DNA of 64,000 bases from a virus. Lineage: Duplodnaviria; Caudoviricetes. A program made the position numbers and the translations under genes. The DNA lies in the IMG/VR virus record IMGVR_UViG_3300029288_000080, positions 64,001 through 128,000 of that record, one strand, 5' to 3'. Positions within the stretch are counted from its first letter, which is position 1. Each line of letters starts with the position of its first letter. Shown piece after piece: positions 4,710 to 63,902 of this stretch. Under the pieces are notes generated by a model, which saw only the letters and a list, made by a program, of their open reading frames with translations, was not told where the DNA came from and ran no database searches.

Positions 4710-5486
4710 ATGTCAGCACCGTACAGAATCGTCCAGCAAGGCCCCGGGATCCACGTCGGCGACGTCATGTCGGCCACCCTGGTTGACGGCCGTCCCCTCA
4801 CGATCGAGGGGTACAGGCTTGAGCAGTACCAGCGGTCCGGCAAGACCATTGTGGCCGGTGAGGGACTTAATGCCTGTGCCTGCGGGGCCCTGGAGATTGA
4901 CTGGCTTCCTTTTGCCGCCGAGCAGTACCACTGCAGCCCCGATATCAAGGACTACGTCCTGGTAGAAGTGCCCACGGTAGTTGCCACTTTCCCTAACCGA
5001 AATGGCGATGCTTTCCCCTACGAGGAACTGACCGCGTGGCGCACCATGGCGGGACGCCCTGCGTACAAGACATTCATTGGAAAGCCGGTCCACCAGGACC
5101 ACGACAACCAGGACGACACCAAGGCCAAGGGGGTCATTTTTGACGCGACACTTCGGAAGCATCGTGGTCAGCCCCATGTCGTGATTTTGAAGGGCTTCGA
5201 CCGGTCCAAAGACCAGCGGCTTGCCGAAATGGTCCAGAAAAAAAACCGTGTTGGCCATTCCATGGGGACCCTGGTTGAGGAAACTGAATGTTCCATCCCG
5301 TCGTGTCGCTATCGCGGCGACGGGATCAAAACCTGCCAGTGCATCCGTCAGGGTGCCGGCAAGGGTGAAATCGTCAACGGACACCTTGTTTATGAATTGC
5401 TCCGTCGGTTCACCTTCATAGAGGACTCAAGCGTAGAGGACCAGGCTAATGTTTCAGCCGTGAGCGACCGCATCTGGAATCCATAG
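4710..5486 (+). CDS. prohead (capsid maturation) protease, HK97/herpes-like fold with Cys-rich insert
   Basis: PNRNGDAF, YKTFIGKPVHQDH (His), HSMG (Ser), CSIPSC..CQCI, FIEDSSV..A; position in the head module. Confidence 0.8.
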   Translation: MSAPYRIVQQGPGIHVGDVMSATLVDGRPLTIEGYRLEQYQRSGKTIVAGEGLNACACGALEIDWLPFAAEQYHCSPDIKDYVLVEVPTVVATFPNRNGDAFPYEELTAWRTMAGRPAYKTFIGKPVHQDHDNQDDTKAKGVIFDATLRKHRGQPHVVILKGFDRSKDQRLAEMVQKKNRVGHSMGTLVEETECSIPSCRYRGDGIKTCQCIRQGAGKGEIVNGHLVYELLRRFTFIEDSSVEDQANVSAVSDRIWNP

Positions 5487-5494
5487 AGGGCAAC

Positions 5495-6514
5495 ATGACC
5501 ATTTTCTATATCGACACCGTTGAGGCTCTGGACCGCTGGTTCGGCAAGATCAAGGGATACACCCGCGTGGAAGCCAACAACACCGGTTACTACCAAGAGG
5601 ACATGGAGCCGTCGTTCATCAATGGCGAAGAACTTGTCCAGGCGGTTCTGGACCAGATGCACCCCTATGTCATCCGGGCTTATTCTGAGCCGGAACTCAT
5701 GACTGTCGACGTGGATATGCGGACCCTGCTCTACGACTATATGGTGGGGACTGGTGCCCGCGACGGCGACTACACCGAGCAGGATCTTGAGGCCGAGATG
5801 GAAGACAACGCCCTCGGGATCCTCACGGGCGTAAAGCGCGAAATGGAAATCAGGGTAGACCCATACCAGTACGTTCATGAAGATTTTAATGCTGACCAAG
5901 GCGGCGAAGAAGCGCCTGCCCAGCGACATTCTCACGTAACCCATGGCTCCCAGGAGCCGCGAAAGGAATCTGTCATGACCCAGAGGAACCGTCCCGCACG
6001 CCGCCGTGCCAATGCTGATGTTGCTCGCGCGCAGGCCCGCACCGCCATGAAGCTCCGGATGGAGAACCAGCGGACAGCAGCCGTGAACCGTCTCCGCCGT
6101 CGTCTCGCTGCTGTCCGGGCCGCCAGGGCCGAGCGGGTTGCCGCTGCCCAGCCCGAGGCCCAGGAGACCCGTCGTCCCAGCCGTATCCTCAGGTCTGCTG
6201 CCGAGCGTTCCGTGGCCCGTCGGGACCACGAGGTCACGACCAAGAGCGTGGCCCGCGATGAGGTTCGTCGTCGCATCGCCGCGATCCGCCAGAAGGCCGC
6301 GGCGGCCCGGTTGGCCGCTGGCCAGCAAGATACTCAGCCCGAGGTCAAGCCGGCCGATCGTTTTGCTGCCCTTCGTGAGCGCCTGGCCCAGCGGCGTCGC
6401 ATTGCTGCGATCCGGACCGCCCTGGCCGAGCGTCGTGCTTCGGTAGAACATGACGCTGAAGTGGCCCCTCCGGTCATCCGGGTCAAGGGCGTCAGGTACG
6501 AGAGGATCGACTGA
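5495..6514 (+). CDS. bipartite protein: acidic N-half plus Arg/Ala-rich C-half (likely internal start at 5975)
   Basis: Sharp composition switch; AAGGA RBS before in-frame ATG 5975; RRxAAxR helical repeats. Confidence 0.7.
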   Translation: MTIFYIDTVEALDRWFGKIKGYTRVEANNTGYYQEDMEPSFINGEELVQAVLDQMHPYVIRAYSEPELMTVDVDMRTLLYDYMVGTGARDGDYTEQDLEAEMEDNALGILTGVKREMEIRVDPYQYVHEDFNADQGGEEAPAQRHSHVTHGSQEPRKESVMTQRNRPARRRANADVARAQARTAMKLRMENQRTAAVNRLRRRLAAVRAARAERVAAAQPEAQETRRPSRILRSAAERSVARRDHEVTTKSVARDEVRRRIAAIRQKAAAARLAAGQQDTQPEVKPADRFAALRERLAQRRRIAAIRTALAERRASVEHDAEVAPPVIRVKGVRYERID

Positions 6515-6528
6515 CCAATAGTTTCGTT

Positions 6529-6560
6529 GGTTCCGTGAGGTCAAATCTCGCGGAACCTTT
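6529..6560 (+). terminator. 13-bp hairpin + TTT with apical AGGTCAAATCT
   Basis: GGTTCCGTGAGGT-CAA-ATCTCGCGGAACC-TTT. Confidence 0.65.
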
Positions 6561-6587
6561 CGGCACCATGTGCCCCTCGAGAATAAA

Positions 6588-6857
6588 ATGAAAAATCCTC
6601 GTGTTAGGACCGCGGCAGAACAACGATTCGACCGTGACGCTATTTTCCAGTGGGTCGTGTCGGTCATGACGGCCGCGACCGACGAGTTGGAAAACATTTC
6701 TGTCGCGATCCAGGATATTGACACGAGCGAAAATCCTGCCGACGGCACCGAAATGCGGGCCGTCCTGCAGGAGCGAATCGGTCAGATCGAAACCACGGTG
6801 GACTGGTGCATCGCGAAGATTACGGCGCTGCGTCCGGCCAAGCCCCAGGCCCGCTAA
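6588..6857 (+). CDS. hypothetical (putative internal head) protein
   Basis: Leader MKNPRVRTA followed by an acidic helical body. Confidence 0.6.
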   Translation: MKNPRVRTAAEQRFDRDAIFQWVVSVMTAATDELENISVAIQDIDTSENPADGTEMRAVLQERIGQIETTVDWCIAKITALRPAKPQAR

Positions 6858-6871
6858 CCAAAGGAATCAAG

Positions 6872-7771
6872 ATGAACATCCAGGACAAGTCAGTCATCAA
6901 GGCATTTGCGAATCGTCAGGCCCGCAAGGTTGAGGGCACCAACTTGGTGTCGGCCAACGGCACCCTGCAGTACCGTGGGGTGGTTGTTGCCCGATGGAAT
7001 CGTGGTCGCGTGGAAACAGCACGGAACCGCGTGGAGCCCAGGGTGTTCAGCGTGATCCAGGGGTCACTCCGCAGCGCTACTGTCAAGACTGCCGACGATG
7101 CCGGTGTCGTGGCTCCTCCTGCTGCGGCACCCATGGGTCCTGCTGATGGAATGCCGGGGGCTGGCGCCGCCCCTGTGGCCCCCCGGGGTTCGGTGTCGCC
7201 TGGCCTCAAGGCCGCGATGGGCACGGCCCTGTCGGAAGTATTCGACGAGTTTGGTCCCGAGATCTACAACGGGATCGTCAAGGCCACGACCGCGGCGCTC
7301 AAGACCGCGTTCACGTCAGGGGTCCAGGAAATCCAGACGACCGTCCAGACGGAGTTTGGCGAGAAGGGCGTCGAGCAGGCCCAGCGGTATTTCCGTCGGT
7401 GGCTCCAGGAAATCACCTCGGACGTGTCGCAATACGGGGTCGCCGACATTATCCTGGCGGCCGAGCACACGGCCGCGACCCTCGCGGCCGACTTCCCCGA
7501 GGAGCAAGCCCCGGACGCCGGGGTTGCCGACCTGGCTGCCCAGGAACCCCAGGGTCAGGAGCCCGCCGAGGACTTGATGCCAGTCGAGGAGCTGCCTGAC
7601 CTGGAGGCTGTGGAGCCTGCCGCTGAACCTGCCGCGACCGAAACCCCCGCGGTCCCGGCTGCCCCGCCGGCTGGTGGTGCCCCTGGTCAGCCCGTTGACC
7701 TCCTGGCGCAACCTGTTGCTGCCCTTACGCCTCGTCAAATCGTTCTAAAGCCCCGCGTTACCCGGCGCTAA
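6872..7771 (+). CDS. hypothetical (putative internal head) protein
   Basis: AAGGA RBS; basic N-domain ending VKTA, then an acidic Pro/Ala-rich region. Confidence 0.75.
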   Translation: MNIQDKSVIKAFANRQARKVEGTNLVSANGTLQYRGVVVARWNRGRVETARNRVEPRVFSVIQGSLRSATVKTADDAGVVAPPAAAPMGPADGMPGAGAAPVAPRGSVSPGLKAAMGTALSEVFDEFGPEIYNGIVKATTAALKTAFTSGVQEIQTTVQTEFGEKGVEQAQRYFRRWLQEITSDVSQYGVADIILAAEHTAATLAADFPEEQAPDAGVADLAAQEPQGQEPAEDLMPVEELPDLEAVEPAAEPAATETPAVPAAPPAGGAPGQPVDLLAQPVAALTPRQIVLKPRVTRR

Positions 7772-7787
7772 AAAGGAAACCATCACC

Positions 7788-8624
7788 ATGGCAAACCAAA
7801 ATCGTCGCAATGCTTTCCGTCGTCTCGCCGATGCACCCCCCAGGTTCACCGAGCAGGATGAGTGCAGCCAGTTGGTTCATGACATCGAGGAAGCTGAAGC
7901 CCTTGGAATGGGCCAGGCGGCCAAGCAACTCCGGGATGAACTGGCCAGGATGTGCCCGGACAAGAAGGTGGCGACGAAGGTTGCCAGTATAGACGCACTG
8001 GCTTCTCTTACCCAGAATCTGCTAAGATTCTTGGACACGGATCCAGTTTTAGAGCAAGACTCAGATATTACGAAATATATGCAGCGGGCGTACAAAATGG
8101 GCCACTATGATGGTCAGCAAGTGGGCTATGATGAAGGGTACGCTGCGGCCAAGACATCTGTTTCTTATGCTGCCACCCGCAAGGCCGCAGTCGACCTGAC
8201 CGAACAGGAACTCGCTGTGCTCAATCGCGCGTTCACGGTGCTGCAGACCAAGGGGATCAGTCTGGACGAAGCGGTCCAGCAGTTCGAAGAAAGCAAGAAG
8301 GAAAAGAAGGCGTCGGTTCGCCGTCGTGCCGTTTCGACCAAGTTGACCGATTCCATCGACTGCGAGGACATCTTGGGTGGAACCATTACCCAGGATGGTG
8401 GTTTCTGCGCTGACCTGAACAAGAAGCCTGGCAAGGCTCAGTACATGGAAAAGGCCGCTGCACTTCGTCGCCGTCGTCTGTCCACCGGGATCGCCAAGAA
8501 GGAATCCGACCCGATCGAGTGCGATGACATCCTGGGGGGCGACGTCACGGAAGACAAGGGATTCTGCCAGGCTCTGAAGTCCAAGCCCAAGGTCAAGAAG
8601 TTTCAGATTGACCGAGCAGAGTAG
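7788..8624 (+). CDS. modular protein with two Cys-pair peptide repeats
   Basis: AAGGA RBS; segments separated by RRLA/KVA/RKA/RRRA; two DxIxCxDILGG..GFC units. Confidence 0.8.
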   Translation: MANQNRRNAFRRLADAPPRFTEQDECSQLVHDIEEAEALGMGQAAKQLRDELARMCPDKKVATKVASIDALASLTQNLLRFLDTDPVLEQDSDITKYMQRAYKMGHYDGQQVGYDEGYAAAKTSVSYAATRKAAVDLTEQELAVLNRAFTVLQTKGISLDEAVQQFEESKKEKKASVRRRAVSTKLTDSIDCEDILGGTITQDGGFCADLNKKPGKAQYMEKAAALRRRRLSTGIAKKESDPIECDDILGGDVTEDKGFCQALKSKPKVKKFQIDRAE

Positions 8625-8641
8625 CCAAAAGGAACACTCCA

Positions 8642-9088
8642 ATGCCGACCCCTCTGCTGAGCCCCATGGATAAATTTACGGTCGTGGCGATTCCAGATCA
8701 CATTGACCCTGACCACGCGGAAGTGTGGGAGCAAGAAAACTGGGTTGACCTAATTTGGACCGACGTGACCCTGGACCAGTACAGGATGATTTGTCGTGGA
8801 ATGCTGCCACAGGACGCGACCCATGAACAGCATTTCTTTTTTGCCGCTGACGTACCGGTCCAGGCGTTGATCCGGTGGGTAAAGGGCAAGATTGCCCAGC
8901 AGTCCAGGATGGCCGGGGTTCATCGTCGTGCTGTCTCCACCAAGTTGACCGATTCCATCGACTGTGAGGATATCCTGGGCGGCACCGTCAAGCAGGATGG
9001 TGGCTTCTGCGCCGACCTGAACAAGAAGCCACGTGCGCCCCAGTATATGGAGAAGGCGACGGCGCAACGCCGTCGCATGCCCCGTTAA
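8642..9088 (+). CDS. protein ending in a third copy of the Cys-pair peptide repeat
   Basis: AAGGA RBS; C-terminal RRAVSTKLTDSIDCEDILGG..GGFCADLNKKP. Confidence 0.8.
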   Translation: MPTPLLSPMDKFTVVAIPDHIDPDHAEVWEQENWVDLIWTDVTLDQYRMICRGMLPQDATHEQHFFFAADVPVQALIRWVKGKIAQQSRMAGVHRRAVSTKLTDSIDCEDILGGTVKQDGGFCADLNKKPRAPQYMEKATAQRRRMPR

Positions 9089-9092
9089 CCAG

Positions 9093-9368
9093 ATGTTCCG
9101 CACCGGCTCCGCCATGCTGGACGGGATCCTCTCGACCGTTGCGAAACAGCAGTTGGCCAGCAGGGAAGATCGTGTTGATGAAGCCCGGCAACAGTTTGAC
9201 TCCTGCTCGGTGCGAGAAATGTTGACTGGGATCGCCGACCTTCAGGCCCAGCAGTACCGGGATTTCGACCTCCATTTTGGCAATCAGCCGAAGTCCAATT
9301 TTTCCATGACCATCAGGGCTGCCCTGGCCCAGTGGGCCGCAGACATTACTCGTGATGAATCTCGTTGA
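9093..9368 (+). CDS. hypothetical protein
   Basis: ATG 4 nt after the upstream stop; overlaps the next gene start. Confidence 0.5.
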   Translation: MFRTGSAMLDGILSTVAKQQLASREDRVDEARQQFDSCSVREMLTGIADLQAQQYRDFDLHFGNQPKSNFSMTIRAALAQWAADITRDESR

Positions 9369-49270: not shown

Positions 49271-50324
49271 TCAGATTTATGGCAGCGTTGTGATCCCGGT
49301 CGCAGGTGAAACCACACTCAGGACAACAGAACGTCCTGACATTAAGGCCCAGTTTTTCCACCACGTGGCCACATTGGCTGCACCGCTTTGACGAAGGGAA
49401 CCAACGGTCCGCCACCACGACCTTGGTTCCATACAGTGGGGCTTTGTACTCCAGTTGACGCCGCAGTTCGCCCCAACCTTCATCATGGATTGCCCTGGCC
49501 AATTTGTGGTTCTTGACCATGCCCTTCACATACAAATCCTCGATCACGACCGTTTGGTTTTCGCGGCAGATCCGAGTAGTTGTTTTGTGAAGAAAATCGT
49601 TCCTGCTCCAGGCGATTTTGCGGTGAAGCCGGGCCAACGCCATCTGGGCTTTCTTGCTGTTCCTGGATCCCTTCTGTTTACGGCTGAACCGCCGTTGTTT
49701 CCTCTTCAGTTTCTCTTGGGCTTTTCTCAGGGCCTTGGGCCCCTGGATCTGTTCTCCGGTTGACAACGTTGCGGTAGTCTTGATCCCAAGGTCAACCCCG
49801 ATGGTGCCATCCGCTACCCTGGCTCGCTCAGAATGCTCGACATCAATCTGTACAGACAAAAACCAAGCGTCAGCAACACGTTTGACCACCGCCCCCATGA
49901 TCTTGCCGACGAAGCGTAATGGCTCGCGAGTCTTTACCCAGCCCAACACCGGGATCCTGACGCGGGTGCCATCCAGGCTGAATTTATCGTTGGCCATGTA
50001 AAACGAGTCATGTTGACCCTTCCGCTTGAGTTTAGGATACTGTGACACACCTTTATGCAATCTGGTGAATGCGTTTTGCACATTATGAAACGGTTGCGCG
50101 GTGCAGTCACGATGAACGTCATATGTCCATGGAAACTGTTCTCCACGAATGGTATTAAAGCTTGCGCGTAGTTTTCTACCACTGGGTTTTTCACCTGCTT
50201 GATGCAGTCTGGTCCACTCGGCCAGCGCCCAGTTGTAGGTGAAACGGGCCACCCCGCAGGCCCGAGCAAAATATTGCTCCTGCTTGACGGTGGGGACTAA
50301 GCGTATGGAGTGCGCCAAGATCAT
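49137..50324 (-). CDS. tnpB: TnpB-family RNA-guided endonuclease (solo, antisense in the tail operon)
   Basis: IGVDLGIK, VIEDLYV, CSQCG..CPEC, DRDHNAAIN; RuvC D/E/D intact. Confidence 0.93.
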   Translation of the reverse strand: MILAHSIRLVPTVKQEQYFARACGVARFTYNWALAEWTRLHQAGEKPSGRKLRASFNTIRGEQFPWTYDVHRDCTAQPFHNVQNAFTRLHKGVSQYPKLKRKGQHDSFYMANDKFSLDGTRVRIPVLGWVKTREPLRFVGKIMGAVVKRVADAWFLSVQIDVEHSERARVADGTIGVDLGIKTTATLSTGEQIQGPKALRKAQEKLKRKQRRFSRKQKGSRNSKKAQMALARLHRKIAWSRNDFLHKTTTRICRENQTVVIEDLYVKGMVKNHKLARAIHDEGWGELRRQLEYKAPLYGTKVVVADRWFPSSKRCSQCGHVVEKLGLNVRTFCCPECGFTCDRDHNAAINLKQIGWATPESTPAEMGALTNLSRLVKLPSLKQEFHRGHLCSQGK

Positions 50325-58781: not shown

Positions 58782-59699
58782 ATGACGACCAAGTACCCCA
58801 CCAAGCACGATGTCCGCGAGCACCATGGCAATCTTTACCGTGCGGCCAAGCAATGGCTGGAGCAGCCCGACAGCTGGTCCCCCGACTGGACCGACGACTG
58901 GGTCGCGGCTGCTGCTTTCCTGAACCAGCAGCCCGACGGCCGGATGTTCCATGAGACCCCCTGGACCCCCAAGGGGGTCATGGGGTTGTTCTCCCAATAC
59001 CGGTTTGACGACCATGGTAATGTGGTCCCGACCCCCAGGGCTCCGCGACAGTCCCGCAAGCCCCTGGGGTTCCGGCGGACTGCCACGGGTTACCGTCGGT
59101 ACCTGAAGCCCGGGACCAGTCAGTACCGCAAGGTCATGGCTTCGGTGGTCCAGGCATTCCAGTGCGGTGGCACCGCTGCCGAAGCAGCCAAGATTCTGGA
59201 GACCAGTGACGCCAACCACCTCAAGAACTACCGGCAGGGCCGCCCCTGGACTGCCCCGGTGGTCACGAGCCTGATGTACCGACTGCGTCATGGCAATCCC
59301 GGTCTGCATGATCGCCTGGTCACCGAGATCCCGACCAATGTGGTACATAGGGATCCCAAGACCAAGAAGGAGCAGGTGGTCAACACGACCAAGCTGTTCG
59401 ACACCCTGGCCAAGGAGTTTGCGCCGCCTGATGCACCTGTGATCGACGCGTTCACGACGCCCAAGCAGGAGTTTGCCTTCTACGCACCGTCACCGACGGC
59501 CAAGCAGGAGCCCAGCAAGCCCAAGGGCCGCGTCATGAAAATCCAGATCCGCGAGGCCGGTGACCTTCTCCAAGTGTTCCGGACCCATAGTGGTACCTTG
59601 GTCCTGACGGTCAAGTCCACCGACCAGCCAGGTGCCCTGATGTCCGCGGTCGACCAGTTCTGCCAGGGCCTCGGCGTCACGATCCCTAAGGTGCTGTAG
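58782..59699 (+). CDS. hypothetical, possibly DNA-binding protein
   Basis: AAGGA RBS; AAEAAKILE..RQGRPWTAPVV resembles a recombinase-type DNA-binding segment. Confidence 0.7.
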   Translation: MTTKYPTKHDVREHHGNLYRAAKQWLEQPDSWSPDWTDDWVAAAAFLNQQPDGRMFHETPWTPKGVMGLFSQYRFDDHGNVVPTPRAPRQSRKPLGFRRTATGYRRYLKPGTSQYRKVMASVVQAFQCGGTAAEAAKILETSDANHLKNYRQGRPWTAPVVTSLMYRLRHGNPGLHDRLVTEIPTNVVHRDPKTKKEQVVNTTKLFDTLAKEFAPPDAPVIDAFTTPKQEFAFYAPSPTAKQEPSKPKGRVMKIQIREAGDLLQVFRTHSGTLVLTVKSTDQPGALMSAVDQFCQGLGVTIPKVL

Positions 59700-59815
59700 T
59701 GAAATCTCCTTGGCCCACTTGGCTGTCCAGGACTTCCCAGCGCCTGATCTACGTGCTCTGGGTCATCGTGGTGATCGCTGGAATCGTGATCCTTGTTCTT
59801 CGCGGCACCTGGTAG
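59699..59815 (+). CDS. 38-aa single-pass membrane peptide
   Basis: GTG overlapping the upstream stop; LIYVLWVIVVIAGIVILVL. Confidence 0.55.
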   Translation: MKSPWPTWLSRTSQRLIYVLWVIVVIAGIVILVLRGTW

Positions 59816-59947
59816 CGCTTGCTCACTCCCCAAGACATTGCCCAGCGGATTCAGCAGCATGACCTGAACAGAGCCCGCCGCAAGTCGCGGGGCTTCAGCC
59901 CCGGCGAATAGGCGCGGCTTTTCTTCGGCTTCAGCCAGAAATAGGTC

Positions 59948-59976
59948 TTGACAGCACTGTCTACAGGCACTATAGT
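59948..59976 (+). promoter_or_regulatory. near-consensus sigma70 promoter with an overlapping inverted repeat
   Basis: TTGACA-17 bp-TATAGT; TGTCTACA (59958-65) and TGTAGACA (59976-83). Confidence 0.8.
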
Positions 59977-60021
59977 GTAGACAGGACGGTAGACACAAAG
60001 GAGAAATAAATGAGAACTTTA
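59977..60021 (+). repeat. 45-bp direct repeat, copy 1 (leader + RBS + first codons)
   Basis: GTAGACAGGACGGTAGACACAAAGGAGAAATAAATGAGAACTTTA; 41/45 identical to 60387-60431. Confidence 0.9.
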
Positions 60022-60390
60022 TACGTCGTGCTTGGTTTTGCTGCGCTAACGTTTGTGGGTTGTGGTAAGAGTCCTGAGGCGAGAAGGGAAGAGCTGATTA
60101 GTCTAGTAGAACGTAAGGTCCAGCATGACCTGCCCTATGAAGACCACAGCACCAGAATTGTTCATGCAAAAATTAGCGATCCTTACCTATGTGTCTATGT
60201 AAATGCAGCAGGAGATCCGCTAGCCAGATACGCAAGCAGCTTTGCTCAAGAACAGGACGTATTGGGCGCGGCAAAGCAAGTTGGCCTTACTACGATCGTG
60301 ATCCACAACGGTCTTAGATCTAATGAAATCGACACGGTAACCGGAACGTCTCAGATGCGTACTGATGCTCTACCCAGCGGATGCAAGTAG
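60010..60390 (+). CDS. putative lipoprotein (IS cargo 1)
   Basis: MRTLYVVLGFAALTFVG-C signal/lipobox. Confidence 0.8.
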   Translation: MRTLYVVLGFAALTFVGCGKSPEARREELISLVERKVQHDLPYEDHSTRIVHAKISDPYLCVYVNAAGDPLARYASSFAQEQDVLGAAKQVGLTTIVIHNGLRSNEIDTVTGTSQMRTDALPSGCK

Positions 60391-60431
60391 ACAGGACAGT
60401 AGACATAAAGGAGGAATAAATGAGAACATTA
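60387..60431 (+). repeat. 45-bp direct repeat, copy 2
   Basis: GTAGACAGGACAGTAGACATAAAGGAGGAATAAATGAGAACATTA. Confidence 0.9.
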
Positions 60432-61016
60432 GGTTTTACCTTGTTTTGTCTGTGCTGCCTATCTTGTAAACAGGAGAGTCAATCTGCCGAGAAAGCGGAA
60501 ACTGCTGATGCTGTTGCTCCGACGTGGCAGGAACAAGAAGCACAACGGGATCAGCAAAATCCGCTTGCTTCCGCGGCCTCGATCTACCGTGAGCTAGTTG
60601 ACGCCTACGCGGTGTTGTCTGGCAAGGAAGAGTGCGTGCCCTGCACGCAACTGGTGCAACAGGAGCGTCGTGCTCAGCAAGTTCAACGCGGCGGCACTGA
60701 CGAGCACCGACGCACAGCTTACAGCATCAAGAGTGCGGCCATCAAAGAATGTTGGGGGCATTTTGACGGTTATGAAACCACACGGTTCGATCGCTACCAC
60801 GAGCGCGTAGGGCGTTTTTCACCAGGTCAACACCAGGTTCTTTATCGACTCTTACAGAAGGGTTTGGTGCTATTACGGCCATGTCGAGCTAAATTATGCC
60901 ATTTGGCCAAAGACAATATTAGGCGCGAGGCTGAAGGTAAATGTAATGCACTGGGCGTAGTGCTGCTCGCCGTAGAAAAGGCGCTCAAGCAAGCCGGTGC
61001 ATTCAAAGAGGAATAG
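60420..61016 (+). CDS. putative lipoprotein (IS cargo 2), Cys-rich helical
   Basis: MRTLGFTLFCLCCLS-C signal/lipobox. Confidence 0.78.
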   Translation: MRTLGFTLFCLCCLSCKQESQSAEKAETADAVAPTWQEQEAQRDQQNPLASAASIYRELVDAYAVLSGKEECVPCTQLVQQERRAQQVQRGGTDEHRRTAYSIKSAAIKECWGHFDGYETTRFDRYHERVGRFSPGQHQVLYRLLQKGLVLLRPCRAKLCHLAKDNIRREAEGKCNALGVVLLAVEKALKQAGAFKEE

Positions 61017-61030
61017 GGCCGGTACTCGCC

Positions 61031-61432
61031 ATGGCTAACGCGATGGAATACCAGCGAGACGAGCACCGGGTCCACTTGATCGTGTACCACTTGATCTGGG
61101 TGCCCCGACGCCGTAAAGCCGTGTTGATCGGTGCCGTCGCCCAGGACTGCAAGGCACTGATCGAGCGTAAGTGCGCGGAGCAGGGCTGGACCATCCTGGA
61201 GTTGGCCATTGACCCCGACCACATTCACCTTTTCGTGCGGGCCTGGCCTACCGTGTCGGCCGCCGAGATTATACAGAAGTGCAAGGGGTTGACTAGCCAC
61301 GAGCTTAGAAAGCGACATCCCCAGCTCTTGAAACTGCCGTCACTGTGGACCAGGTCCTACTTTGCCTCCACGGCCGGTAATGTGTCGAGCGAAACCATCC
61401 AACGGTATATCGCGGCTCAGCGTAAATTCTGA
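61031..61432 (+). CDS. tnpA: IS200/IS605 Y1 HUH transposase
   Basis: YHLIWVPRRR, DHIHL (HUH), LWTRSYF, IQRYI..Q (catalytic Tyr). Confidence 0.96.
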   Translation: MANAMEYQRDEHRVHLIVYHLIWVPRRRKAVLIGAVAQDCKALIERKCAEQGWTILELAIDPDHIHLFVRAWPTVSAAEIIQKCKGLTSHELRKRHPQLLKLPSLWTRSYFASTAGNVSSETIQRYIAAQRKF

Positions 61433-62580
61433 TGTTAAAGACCTTCCGCTACCGTCTCTACCCCAGCAAGGCCCAGGCCAAACGCCTGGCCTCGACGCTG
61501 GAGACGTGCCGCCGGGTCTACAACGACTGCTTGGCCGAGCGGAAAGTGGCCTACGAGACCGAAGGCAAGACCATCGGGAAGTTCGAGCAGCTCCGTCACG
61601 TCAAGGAGATCAAAGCGACCAACCCCTATGCCAAAGGAGTCCACAGCCACGTCCTCCAGGTCACGATCTCGGACCTGGATAAAGCGTTCCAAGCATTTTT
61701 CCGTAGGGTCAAGCAGGGCGAAAAGCCCGGCTACCCTAGGTTCAAGGGGCGGGATCGTTTTGACTCGTTCGGGCTGAAAGAACTGGGCAACGGATTTAAG
61801 GTGGACGGCCGACGGCTGAAGATCTCTGGTGTCGGAAGGATCGCGGTCAGGTGGCACCGGGAACTGGAAGGCAAGGTCAAGACTATCCGGTTGGTCCGGG
61901 CCGCGGGCCATTGGTTTGCATGTTTCTCCTGTGAGGTTGCTGTGCAGCCACCGCTGCCCGCGACGGGCAAGAGCGTTGGGCTTGACGTTGGTATCGAGAG
62001 CATCTTGACCACCAGCGATGGCGACAAGGTAGAGAACCCTAGGTGGTACCGTGGCGACCAAGCCAAGCTCAGGGTGGTGCAACGTAGGGTGTCCAGACGA
62101 AAGAAAGGGAGCAGGCGTCGGCGTAAAGCCATCAAGATGCTCCAACGGCACCACGAAAGAACCAAAAATCGGCGAAAGGATTTTTTGGACAAGTTGGCTT
62201 GCACGTTGATCACAACTAACGACGTCATCGCGATCGAAGACTTGCAGGTCACCAATATGGTCAGGAACCACCACCTGGCCAAGAGCATCATGGACGCATC
62301 CTGGGGCTATCTGCGGCAACGACTTGAAGCCAAAGCGGCAGAAGCTGGACGGCAAGTCATCGCGGTACCCCCGGCCTACACGTCCAAATCTTGCTCGGGT
62401 TGTGGCGCTATTTTTGAGGATCTGAAATTAAGCACCAGATGGGTCAAGTGCTGCTGTGGTTTGTCTCTGGACCGCGACCACAACGCTGCCGTCAACATTC
62501 TTAGGAGGGGACACCTCCTTCGGGAGTCAACGTGGGCCGCTCAAGAGCCGTGCGTATCCCGAGAAGCCGCTGGGCTTTAG
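61432..62580 (+). CDS. tnpB: TnpB RNA-guided endonuclease
   Basis: KTFRYRLYP; VGLDVG, IAIEDL, CSGCG..CCCG, DRDHNAAVN. Confidence 0.95.
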   Translation: MLKTFRYRLYPSKAQAKRLASTLETCRRVYNDCLAERKVAYETEGKTIGKFEQLRHVKEIKATNPYAKGVHSHVLQVTISDLDKAFQAFFRRVKQGEKPGYPRFKGRDRFDSFGLKELGNGFKVDGRRLKISGVGRIAVRWHRELEGKVKTIRLVRAAGHWFACFSCEVAVQPPLPATGKSVGLDVGIESILTTSDGDKVENPRWYRGDQAKLRVVQRRVSRRKKGSRRRRKAIKMLQRHHERTKNRRKDFLDKLACTLITTNDVIAIEDLQVTNMVRNHHLAKSIMDASWGYLRQRLEAKAAEAGRQVIAVPPAYTSKSCSGCGAIFEDLKLSTRWVKCCCGLSLDRDHNAAVNILRRGHLLRESTWAAQEPCVSREAAGL

Positions 62581-63003
62581 CCCATGCGGAGTGTCACCGA
62601 GAGTACCAAACCACTATCATGTGGGCGTTGCTTGACGCGGTCGCGGACGCACATCAGTATGCCGATGTCCAGTTGGTCGAGACCCCCTGGACCCTCGTGG
62701 CCGACGTCGTGGCCTACGGAGTTCAAGGTAAATCCCCTGCCCTGACGACAGCGGCAATTCAATGTCTGGAGCAGGGATTCGCCGCCGTGGGCACCAAGGC
62801 CAGTATTTTATACGACTTGGCTGGTGACGGCAGCACCTGTTGTGTCGTGGATCCAGAAGTTCATGACCCCGAAAAGGTCGTGGCCAGGATGAAAGCCCCG
62901 GTGGTCAGGTATCAAGGCCGGATTTTTATTCGCCGTTAGTCCACGAAACTAAAACAGAATCCTGGGGCACGGCAAAATAAATCCATTTTTCTGTAAAAAA
63001 GAG

Positions 63004-63032
63004 TTGACGTTGTCAATCAAATGACCTATATA
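63004..63032 (+). promoter_or_regulatory. sigma70-type promoter
   Basis: TTGACG-17 bp-TATATT with an AT-rich upstream tract. Confidence 0.65.
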
Positions 63033-63089
63033 TTGCTTGTAGGCAGCGACAACCAACGGCCCCAAGGGGCCTGAACCAGGAGAACGAAA

Positions 63090-63902
63090 ATGCCCAGCAA
63101 GAAGATCGATGGTATCACCCGCAACGATTTCTTCTACGTGGAGACCAAGTTCGTCCGGGTGGAGCCCGGGTTCAACGGAAGGATCACCACGACCGACAAC
63201 GGAGTCGCCCCCGACGACGACCTCGCCGACCTGGAGTCGATCCGGGAGCACGGGGTCCTGGTGCCGCTCATGGTGCGGCCCGACCCCGAGGGGATCACCA
63301 AGTACGTGGTGATCGAGGGGCACCGGCGGCTCGCCAAGGTGCTGCTGCTGAACGCGAACGGCTGCGACATCCGGGTGCCCGTCATCGTCGAGCACGTCAA
63401 CGAGCAGGACGCCGCCGCCATGATGGCGATGGCGGGGCTCCAGCGCAAGAACTTCTCGTTCGCCGAGGAGGTCAACATCGTCCGGAAGTTCGCCCGGTGG
63501 GGCCTGTCCCCGGCCGAGACGGCCAAGAAGATCGGGATGCCGGTGGAGTGGGTGCGGCAGCACCTCGCGGTTTCCGCCGCCCCCGAGTCCGTCCTGGCGG
63601 CCGTGGCCTCCGGGGCCATGCCGGCCGACGTGGCGGTCAAGATCGCGAACCTCTCGGCCCGGGATGTCAAGAAGGTCGTGGACGCGGCCCAGAAGGGCCG
63701 GGGCTGCGCCCGCAAGGCCTCAGAGAAGGTGACCGGCAAGGCCGCGCGGCCCGGCAAGAAGGTGGTGGTGTCCATGAAGACCCTGCTGGCCGAGACCAAG
63801 CGGAACCGGAGCCCCCGGGTGAACCGCTGGATCGAGACCTGCCTGGACTTCGCGGCCGGGATGGTCCCGGCCGACGACCTGGCCGACATGCTCCGTCGCT
63901 AG
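63090..63902 (+). CDS. ParB/Srx N-terminal domain protein with HTH
   Basis: LESIREHGVLVPLMV..YVVIEGHRR; PAETAKKIGMPVEWVRQHL. Confidence 0.88.
   Translation: MPSKKIDGITRNDFFYVETKFVRVEPGFNGRITTTDNGVAPDDDLADLESIREHGVLVPLMVRPDPEGITKYVVIEGHRRLAKVLLLNANGCDIRVPVIVEHVNEQDAAAMMAMAGLQRKNFSFAEEVNIVRKFARWGLSPAETAKKIGMPVEWVRQHLAVSAAPESVLAAVASGAMPADVAVKIANLSARDVKKVVDAAQKGRGCARKASEKVTGKAARPGKKVVVSMKTLLAETKRNRSPRVNRWIETCLDFAAGMVPADDLADMLRR

Follow-up and report, generated by a model that had tools for sequence, protein, structure and literature searches.

Features of the locus

The window analyzed here is a 64,000-nt stretch of viral DNA (Duplodnaviria; Caudoviricetes) that comprises bases 64001-128000 of a 177.6-kb IMG/VR contig (IMGVR_UViG_3300029288_000080) with a CheckV completeness estimate of 70%. 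Positions 59864-62597 of the window contain a left end (LE), a promoter and leader, two genes for predicted exported proteins (cargo genes 1 and 2, below ORF1 and ORF2, for open reading frame), the transposition genes tnpA and tnpB, and a right end (RE), and the whole of this segment lies inside a phage gene (Table 1). It is very probably a complete IS605-group member of the IS200/IS605 family of insertion sequences (IS) that has turned into a small transposon, with the two exported-protein genes situated between the native LE promoter/leader and tnpA. An IS is defined as carrying mobility and maintenance genes only, and the two genes at 60010-61016 between the LE and tnpA place the element outside that definition; by mechanism it belongs to the IS200/IS605 family, and by content it is a cargo-carrying (transporter) IS or small transposon.

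Table 1. Features of the element and its surroundings (window coordinates unless another contig is named).
Feature	Position	Strand	Remarks
Interrupted phage gene, 5′ part	59819..59863	+	Flank, outside the element; ends in TGAC (59860-59863), the target and transposon-associated motif (TAM) tetranucleotide; homologous to L004 1188-1233
LE	59864..59919	+	Guide CAAG 59881-59884 (+18..+21); imperfect TnpA-type hairpin 59885-59907
Sigma70-type promoter	59948..59976	+	TTGACA-17-TATAGT, 11/12 consensus positions; 82% identical to L113
Leader with GTAGACA repeats	59958..60009	+	Inverted copy 59958-59965 in the promoter spacer, direct copies at 59977 and 59989; Shine-Dalgarno site after
Cargo gene 1 (ORF1), 126-aa predicted lipoprotein	60010..60390	+	Signal peptide; FVGC lipobox (LTFVGC)
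Second GTAGACA leader and Shine-Dalgarno site	60387..60419	+	Before cargo gene 2; 91% identical repeat of 59977-60021
Cargo gene 2 (ORF2), 198-aa exported or anchored protein (predicted)	60420..61016	+	Six invariant Cys
tnpA, Y1 HUH transposase	61031..61432	+	Pfam Y1_Tnp, 1.7e-34
tnpB, RNA-guided nuclease (predicted), 382 aa	61432..62580	+	Pfam HTH_OrfB_IS605, OrfB_IS605, Cas12f1-like_TNB
omegaRNA-type scaffold and RE	62480..62597	+	Consensus structure of 26 relatives
RE guide GAAG	62563-62566 (-35..-32)	+	Hairpin 62567-62589; terminal TCAC 62594-62597
Flank usable as omegaRNA guide, CGAGAGTACCAAACCA	62598..62613	+	Directly 3′ of RE; equals the target in an IS-free allele
Interrupted phage gene, 3′ part	62598..62939	+	Matches P0002 at 89% identity (L004, a relative that lacks the IS)
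TNB zinc-finger domains of the contig's TnpB genes	1973-2176, 49272-49475 (-), 62302-62499; G000:C1:177334-177531		

Both transposition proteins retain the residues expected of active enzymes. TnpA aligns with solved TnpA structures (2ec2, 2a6m, and 2xm3), the matches including the IS608, ISDra2, and archaeal proteins, and it keeps the HUH motif (HIH) and the catalytic tyrosine (IQRY); in sibling elements tnpA starts at the ATG equivalent to 61043. TnpB is matched by the ISDra2 TnpB structures (8bf8/8exa; E=2.4e-63), its RuvC D-E-D residues and zinc finger are intact, and the motifs DVGI, IEDL, and DRDHNAA are aligned. Relatives were drawn from 80 genomic and 28 viral loci encoding relatives of this TnpB; among phage GenBank records, only Thermus phage TSP4 gave a match, over 74 nt of a tnpB fragment.

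Element ends and the guide rule

The hairpins of the LE and RE share the same design, each having a top stem of 5 bp above one bulge and a lower stem of 4 bp; their stems covary among relatives, and there are no terminal inverted repeats. At the LE, an outer stem (59872-59919) surrounds the guide CAAG and the hairpin and is followed by a T-run, giving a fold that resembles a terminator. Taken singly, the hairpins are only slightly more stable than their shuffles (z of -1.7 and -1.1), and the case for the ends therefore rests on comparison with relatives. On the right, BLAST homology of ∼25 relatives ends exactly at 62597, after GAGTGTCAC, and the right ends of ∼30 relatives read (A/G)AGAAG-CCGC-stem-loop-stem-bulge-GCGG-AGTGTCAC, with flanks that diverge at once beyond. 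On the left, 11 relatives have TGAC, the boundary, 13-17 nt, (A)CCCGCCG, CAAG, the hairpin, and TTAGGCGGGTTT in this order; the LE layout of the window is also found in L085, L086, and L087, and TGAC precedes the left end in all 11 relatives with a CAAG guide as well as in L113. Contigs from landfill and groundwater metagenomes that contain other copies of the element begin to match the window at 59871/2 and stop matching it exactly at 62597, their flanks being unrelated.

In IS608, the tetranucleotide beside each hairpin reportedly specifies the cleavage site by pairing, a scheme said to have been worked out by Barabas in 2008 and Guynet in 2009. The scheme also fits the window, where CAAG is matched by TGAC and GAAG by TCAC, as well as the 11 left ends and the ∼30 right ends, and the more distant relatives L048 and L075 combine the guide AAAG with the flank TTAC, which is the IS608 pair; guide and cleavage site thus covary as the pairing rule predicts. 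A first-pass annotation of the window, made from the sequence alone, had proposed both the ends and this guide-to-cleavage rule; they hold across these relatives, and all of its coordinates (for TGAC, CAAG, GAAG, TCAC, the hairpins, and the element at 59864-62597) proved correct. Neither folding nor a search for guide and hairpin revealed the closer left end, at 61016-61031, for which that annotation had allowed: the region 60960-61040 folds no better than shuffled sequence, and the distance from the ORF2 stop codon to tnpA is only 14-26 nt. The sole other upstream candidate with a guide and hairpin, located 416 nt before tnpA within ORF2, was rejected, as its GAAG lacks the required TCAC and its hairpin is unlike that of the family.

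A scan with a loose LE pattern gave, among the matches listed, GC-rich chance hits and no real LE. One contig from a landfill metagenome (run X4) joins window position 59914 to 62560, and the same run also contains loose ends before 59872 (ending AAGAATGAC CATTCCTGA) and after 62597; the joint may represent a ∼90-nt LE-RE miniature (PATE-like) derivative in AT-rich DNA. A joint of 59470 to 61486 in run X3 was disregarded, one of its sides measuring only 21 nt.

Position of the cargo within the element

The distance from the LE guide to tnpA is 77-145 nt in relatives (304 nt in one) compared with 1162 nt in the window. The nearest siblings without cargo, L085 and L086 (TnpB 80% identical) and L087 (76%), align with the window from TGAC through the LE, a promoter, and a GTAGACAG leader, and then proceed directly to tnpA (ATG-GA(C/A)-TA(T/C)-CAG). 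Homology of the window to these siblings breaks after GTAGACAGGA (∼59986) and is resumed at ATGGAATACCAG (61043), which indicates that ∼1.06 kb has entered the element downstream of its own tnpA leader and ahead of the tnpA gene. In keeping with this the element measures 2734 nt compared with ∼1.7 kb for the cargo-less siblings (∼1.69 kb in L086).

The first-pass annotation had placed a strong sigma70 promoter and two lipoprotein genes inside the element. Comparison with the siblings confirms that promoter and genes are internal, and the promoter is close to consensus, more so in the window than in the siblings. The promoter is, however, tnpA's own: it aligns with the segment of L086 and L087 that contains TATATTGTAGACAG and leads to the tnpA ATG, so that the element's 'own promoter' of that annotation is the family's native tnpA promoter/leader rather than an import, and only one of the two genes has a convincing lipobox (see below). 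The GTAGACAG sequence is shared with the tnpA leader of the siblings, where one copy of GTAGACA is present. No terminators were found on the + strand from the promoter to 61892, and the cargo genes are predicted to be transcribed as the first genes of a tnpA-tnpB operon. In the window, GTAGACA occurs as four direct copies and one inverted copy at 59958-59995 and 60387-60405, against a frequency of roughly one copy in 10-20 kb of each strand in the rest of the 177-kb genome. Such an arrangement resembles an operator, and L113 shares it. A scan of metagenome and viral contigs with the leader pattern TAGACAYAAAGGAGRAATAAA returned chance matches only.

The cargo is also foreign in composition, with a GC content of 0.48-0.52 compared with 0.58 for tnpA and tnpB and 0.61-0.62 for the phage flanks. 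The cargo-less sibling in L086 has a GC content of 0.55 inside phage flanks of 0.37-0.41 (L086:1-3400 and 5200-9143), a contrast which indicates that this IS lineage moves between phages of very different composition.

A sister element and its empty site

A sister element resides in another phage (contigs L113, L114, and L115), where the LE, the promoter, a homologue of ORF2 (P0004, 47% identical), tnpA (91.5% amino acid identity), tnpB (88%), and the RE are surrounded by flanks unrelated to those of the window. Nucleotide homology between L113 and the window starts on the left directly after TTGAC and stops on the right at GAGTGTCAC. An empty-site search, made by identity look-up of the protein encoded in the left flank of L113, recovered seven contigs from seven samples in which the left-flank gene is followed directly by the right-flank gene with nothing inserted (TTGAC next to TTTTTCC); in the viral contigs, the same protein had no relatives. 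Empty contigs read GGTGCTTGAC followed at once by TTTTTCCGATTG (so that GGTGCTTGAC abuts TTTTTCC), and filled contigs read GGTGCTTGAC, then CTAGAC, 2334 nt, and GAGTGTCAC, and then TTTTTCCGATTG. With the element removed, L113 is colinear with the empty contigs, 99.3-100% identical, and gapless at the junction, and sample 3300063078 contains both alleles, L250 being empty and L115 filled. The sister insertion is a base-perfect IS605-type insertion 3′ of TGAC, without duplication, and the inserted unit includes the cargo gene. The presence of an LE-to-RE unit with homologous cargo in two unrelated contexts, together with this clean polymorphism, indicates that the element moved as a unit after the cargo had been acquired.

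In all filled copies of the sister element (L113:4046-4075, L114, L115, and L252) the 27-nt inner LE hairpin is missing, and CAAG lies in the loop that the outer stem, which is retained, now closes; both transposition genes are intact. Without the hairpin, which TnpA requires, the sister element should be immobile with respect to TnpA and is predicted to be still open to TnpB homing; descent and recombination/TnpB homing are the only routes left to it if it is still spreading. All seven empty sister alleles carry a perfect TAM and target.

The insertion in the window

Removal of 59864-62597 joins a TTG-started ORF (start 59819, 15 codons) in frame to 62598-62939, and the insertion has no target duplication. 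The restored frame proposed by the first-pass annotation was borne out, although the empty site known is syntenic and not exact to the base. One relative of the interrupted gene, P0002, is encoded on L004, a syntenic 13-kb contig that contains neither the IS nor the two cargo genes; homology to the left flank stops there at 1233 and homology to the right flank starts at 1326, leaving 93 extra nt (31 codons, in frame) at the junction, and L004 has CGAC where the window has TGAC. The 93-nt indel could have arisen either before or after the insertion, and the ends, which are set by comparison within the family, are unaffected by it. That the 93 nt might be a decayed IS end was considered and rejected, the LE local alignment being reached by 15 of 300 shuffles and the whole-IS alignment by 66 of 100. 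The junction search that had been suggested for finding empty-site relatives gave no exact match to CAGCAGCATGACCGAGAGTACC in viral contigs, the indel-bearing L004 being the empty relative obtained, and a search of viral contigs with the product of the interrupted gene returned no relatives. No contig joining 59863 to 62598 was present in four metagenome runs examined, contigs being unable to show rare variants, and no RNA run was listed as containing the sequence. All contigs of the window phage that were found carry the insertion, which appears to be fixed in the sampled populations.

The cargo proteins

In each cargo family one member outside the window immediately precedes tnpA, the lineage being a different one for each family, and each family also has a member that is not part of an IS. 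ORF1 has a single homologue, P0006 (61% identical; lipobox LMGC in LALMGC), which is the second gene in a tandem array of four small lipoprotein genes located behind a tRNA and a promoter on L116. Behind P0006 lie ∼40 nt of relic sequence that match the start of the cargo-type tnpA (window 61038-61074) at 92% identity, with no IS ends present. The genes of this array (L116:1-2000) share the pattern MKTF..xGC, the three neighbors of P0006 also ending in xGC. For ORF2, the homologue inside the sister IS (P0004) was the sole one found in 5.8 billion proteins, and the family has a third member, P0007, which stands alone behind a promoter of its own in a further phage (L245), with no IS sequence nearby. 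Both cargo families thus look like phage accessory genes that were captured by IS elements. In the window both genes are present and a copy of the GTAGACA leader precedes each of them, which points to gain of cassettes by recombination at the leader. Between the window and sister elements, ORF2 is 47% identical as against 88-91% for TnpA and TnpB, and the cargo would seem to be either fast-diverging or swapped.

The N-terminus of ORF2 is hydrophobic and signal-like, but CLSC, SAAC, and AAWWC do not amount to a conserved lipobox, and the assignment of the protein as a lipoprotein is uncertain. Pfam and PHROGs gave no matches for either window cargo protein, P0006 receiving weak N-terminal (signal-peptide) hits only. 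Structural comparison was similarly uninformative: ORF1 was modelled by AlphaFold2 with a pLDDT of 79, Foldseek against the PDB returned no match for the cargo at E<=0.001, scores in the ESM Atlas were <=0.83 (noise level), and the best VIA-align score (Z 7.0) fell inside the stated noise range. Pilotin-like lipoproteins of type II secretion systems appeared weakly in two lists and were not counted as evidence. As a guess, the cargo may act at the host envelope for the benefit of the phage, for example in superinfection exclusion or receptor masking.

The omegaRNA scaffold and its guide

An alignment of the last 170 nt of the element in 26 sequences supports three helices, in which 25 of 31 pairs show compensatory changes (at least one sequence altered on both sides with the pair kept). 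Such a pattern is the signature of a structured omegaRNA/RE, for which the overlapping coding frame cannot account; no Rfam family matched in 59500-63100. By analogy with the established TnpB mechanism, the flank directly downstream of the RE would serve as the guide. The corresponding target in L004 differs from CGAGAGTACCAAACCA at 3 of 16 bases.

Proposed mechanism and alternative explanations

Following the mechanism established for IS608 and ISDra2, TnpA would cut the top strand 3′ of TGAC at the LE, guided by CAAG, and 3′ of TCAC at the RE, guided by GAAG, and would re-insert the resulting single-stranded circle 3′ of another TGAC. An omegaRNA would be made from the 3′ end of tnpB and the RE, and the TnpB-omegaRNA complex would read the TAM TGAC and the 16 nt that follow the RE, cutting copies of the site that lack the IS, in a donor after excision or in the genome of a co-infecting phage. 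A filled copy would then serve as template for recombinational repair, by which the element would return together with its cargo, the filled allele being protected by a target preceded by TCAC rather than TGAC. With many genome copies and co-infecting relatives in one cell, the cargo could in this way be carried into IS-free genomes.

A more far-reaching possibility, in line with the gene-drive idea of the first-pass annotation and in our view conceivable but doubtful, is that such elements act as natural RNA-guided gene drives with a payload. The envelope-protein cargo would then owe its spread and persistence among phages to TnpB homing, directed at sites with TGAC and the target in co-infecting phage genomes, rather than to TnpA transposition. 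The sister element may in that case be a TnpB-only drive caught in progress, having lost the LE hairpin that TnpA binds and coexisting within a sample with IS-free alleles that carry a perfect target, and the repeated GTAGACA leader may be the site at which cargo cassettes are swapped or added.

Several observations weigh against the interpretation of 59864-62597 as a functional cargo-bearing transposon. The insertion in the window has no base-perfect empty site, its one syntenic counterpart being the indel-bearing L004, and neither an excision product nor an IS-free contig of the window phage was found. Excision of IS608, as Ton-Hoang et al. are said to have reported in 2010, drops with element length, in which case the extra 1.06 kb should lower TnpA-driven mobility. 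Loss of the hairpin in the sister element may mean that cargo-bearing copies are decaying rather than thriving. TnpB activity, expression of the omegaRNA, and homing are what we infer from related systems, and the L004 allele (CGAC, with three mismatches in 16 nt) probably resists cutting by TnpB. The evidence for the role of the cargo consists of signal peptides and conserved cysteines.

Some of these points would also fit stranded cargo: the LE at 59864 would be a relic, tnpA, tnpB, and the RE would be what is left of an element that no longer moves by TnpA or TnpB, and the two genes would be an ordinary moron of the phage, inserted into a dead IS. Decay of this kind does happen, as the relative of cargo gene 1 beside a ∼40-nt tnpA relic without IS ends on L116 illustrates, and it would agree with the absence of the LE hairpin from every filled sister copy and with the filled state of every contig of the window phage, where no excision product was seen. 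Stranding is nevertheless unlikely, given that the LE, RE, tnpA, and tnpB of the window are all intact and fit the family consensus, that an LE-to-RE unit with homologous cargo lies directly 3′ of TGAC in each of two unrelated phage contexts, and that one of these contexts shows a clean insertion polymorphism. Rather less probable still is that the extra genes serve the element instead of the phage, whether as regulators of transposition or as a module that works against competing copies by addiction or exclusion, in the manner of Arc. Regulatory accessory genes do exist in IS605 elements (bioRxiv 10.64898/2026.09.24.754181), and the position of the cargo in the tnpA operon, downstream of an operator-like set of GTAGACA repeats, would suit such a function. 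Both proteins, however, have N-terminal export signals, one has a lipobox, and the ORF2 family has six invariant cysteines typical of extracytoplasmic proteins, features that make DNA binding or an action on transposition unlikely; moreover, members of the two families occur without an IS, in the lipoprotein array of L116 and as the stand-alone gene with its own promoter on L245.

IS elements also often break or mis-join metagenome assemblies, and two contigs (L260 and L261) start ∼63 nt after the RE, so that a chimeric joining of the IS to unrelated DNA has to be considered. This is extremely improbable: the same structure is present in independent assemblies (the IMG/VR contig, L117 from JGI, L259 and L262 from Logan, and another Logan contig), and short contigs from four further runs span all of the internal junctions with 0 differences. 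Counted by study, at least four more have contigs that read through the LE, the ORF2-tnpA junction, and the RE, likewise with 0 differences, which argues against an assembly artefact. A complete, cargo-bearing IS605-group element accordingly remains the preferred interpretation.

Relation to known systems

The element resembles IS608 (ISHp608) and ISDra2 in encoding a Y1 HUH TnpA and a TnpB, in having subterminal imperfect hairpins without inverted repeats and a 4-nt guide 5′ of each hairpin (the TTAC/AAAG and TCAA/GAAT scheme becoming TGAC/CAAG and TCAC/GAAG here), in inserting 3′ of a tetranucleotide without target duplication, for which a precise empty site is known in the sister element, and in an omegaRNA scaffold that overlaps the 3′ end of tnpB and the RE. 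It differs from them in residing in a phage and in the ∼1.06 kb that separate its LE promoter from tnpA and contain two genes foreign to transposition. IS200/IS605 elements are usually treated as minimal (tnpA, tnpB, and omegaRNA), and the first-pass annotation, which described them as normally carrying tnpA and tnpB only, followed this usual view; it needs to be qualified in that rare cargo, as an uncharacterized exception, and Arc are already in the literature (PMC10691335; bioRxiv 10.64898/2026.09.24.754181). Rare cargo-associated TnpB transposons were described by Altae-Tran et al. (2023; PMC10691335), and these likewise have extra genes inside elements of the IS200/IS605/IS607 type. Their cargo, however, belongs mainly to the serine-recombinase branch and comprises helix-turn-helix (HTH) proteins, an RNA helicase, and a WhiA-like protein, whereas the present element has a Y1 TnpA and exported envelope proteins. 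The Arc repressor is an accessory gene of some IS605 elements (bioRxiv 10.64898/2026.09.24.754181) and regulates the element itself, unlike the exported-protein cargo found here. In comparison with both, what the present case adds is that both ends have been mapped, that the sister element has an empty site, and that cargo homologues occur in two element lineages.

IStrons, which combine an IS605 element with a group I intron (for example, CdISt1; PMC10690162), likewise have an extra module at the left end, upstream of the transposon genes, that moves with the element; in IStrons the module is a self-splicing RNA that neutralizes the insertion, whereas in the window it consists of two protein genes on the element's promoter. 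Phage morons and the homing-endonuclease islands of T-even phages (PMC13565253) share with the element small accessory genes that have their own promoter in phage genomes and that could be spread by a linked nuclease, its target being the allele without the nuclease in a co-infecting phage. The nuclease of the window differs in being RNA-guided, and the element has discrete transposon ends and a second route of mobility via TnpA. IS605 spread of this sort has been named 'non-restorative homing' and has so far been raised in theory only (PMC13565253).

A kind of element that is normally free of cargo can, on this evidence, carry a payload: the example is a phage Y1-type element with exported-protein cargo and ends defined to the base, for which cargo-less siblings, a second lineage, and a natural polymorphism are available. 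Peel-and-paste transport of payload genes between phages, and TnpB homing as a drive for linked genes, are thereby made testable. The cargo also brings to notice two families of exported proteins in phages, both orphans, as candidates for functions at the phage-host envelope; in one of them divergence is much more rapid than in the genes of the transposon.

Other features of the phage contig

The element's neighbors are a 38-aa ORF on one side and a ParB-like gene on the other. A GTG-started ORF (62532-62939) that begins inside the RE region continues, without a change of frame, through what remains of the interrupted gene on the 3′ side and was called as the 135-aa protein P0001, and the RE junction is overlapped by a hybrid promoter of weak match, GTGTCA-18-TATCAT (62591-62620); the truncated gene may still be expressed. 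The contig has four TnpB genes with a TNB zinc-finger domain and thus represents an unusually TnpB-rich phage.

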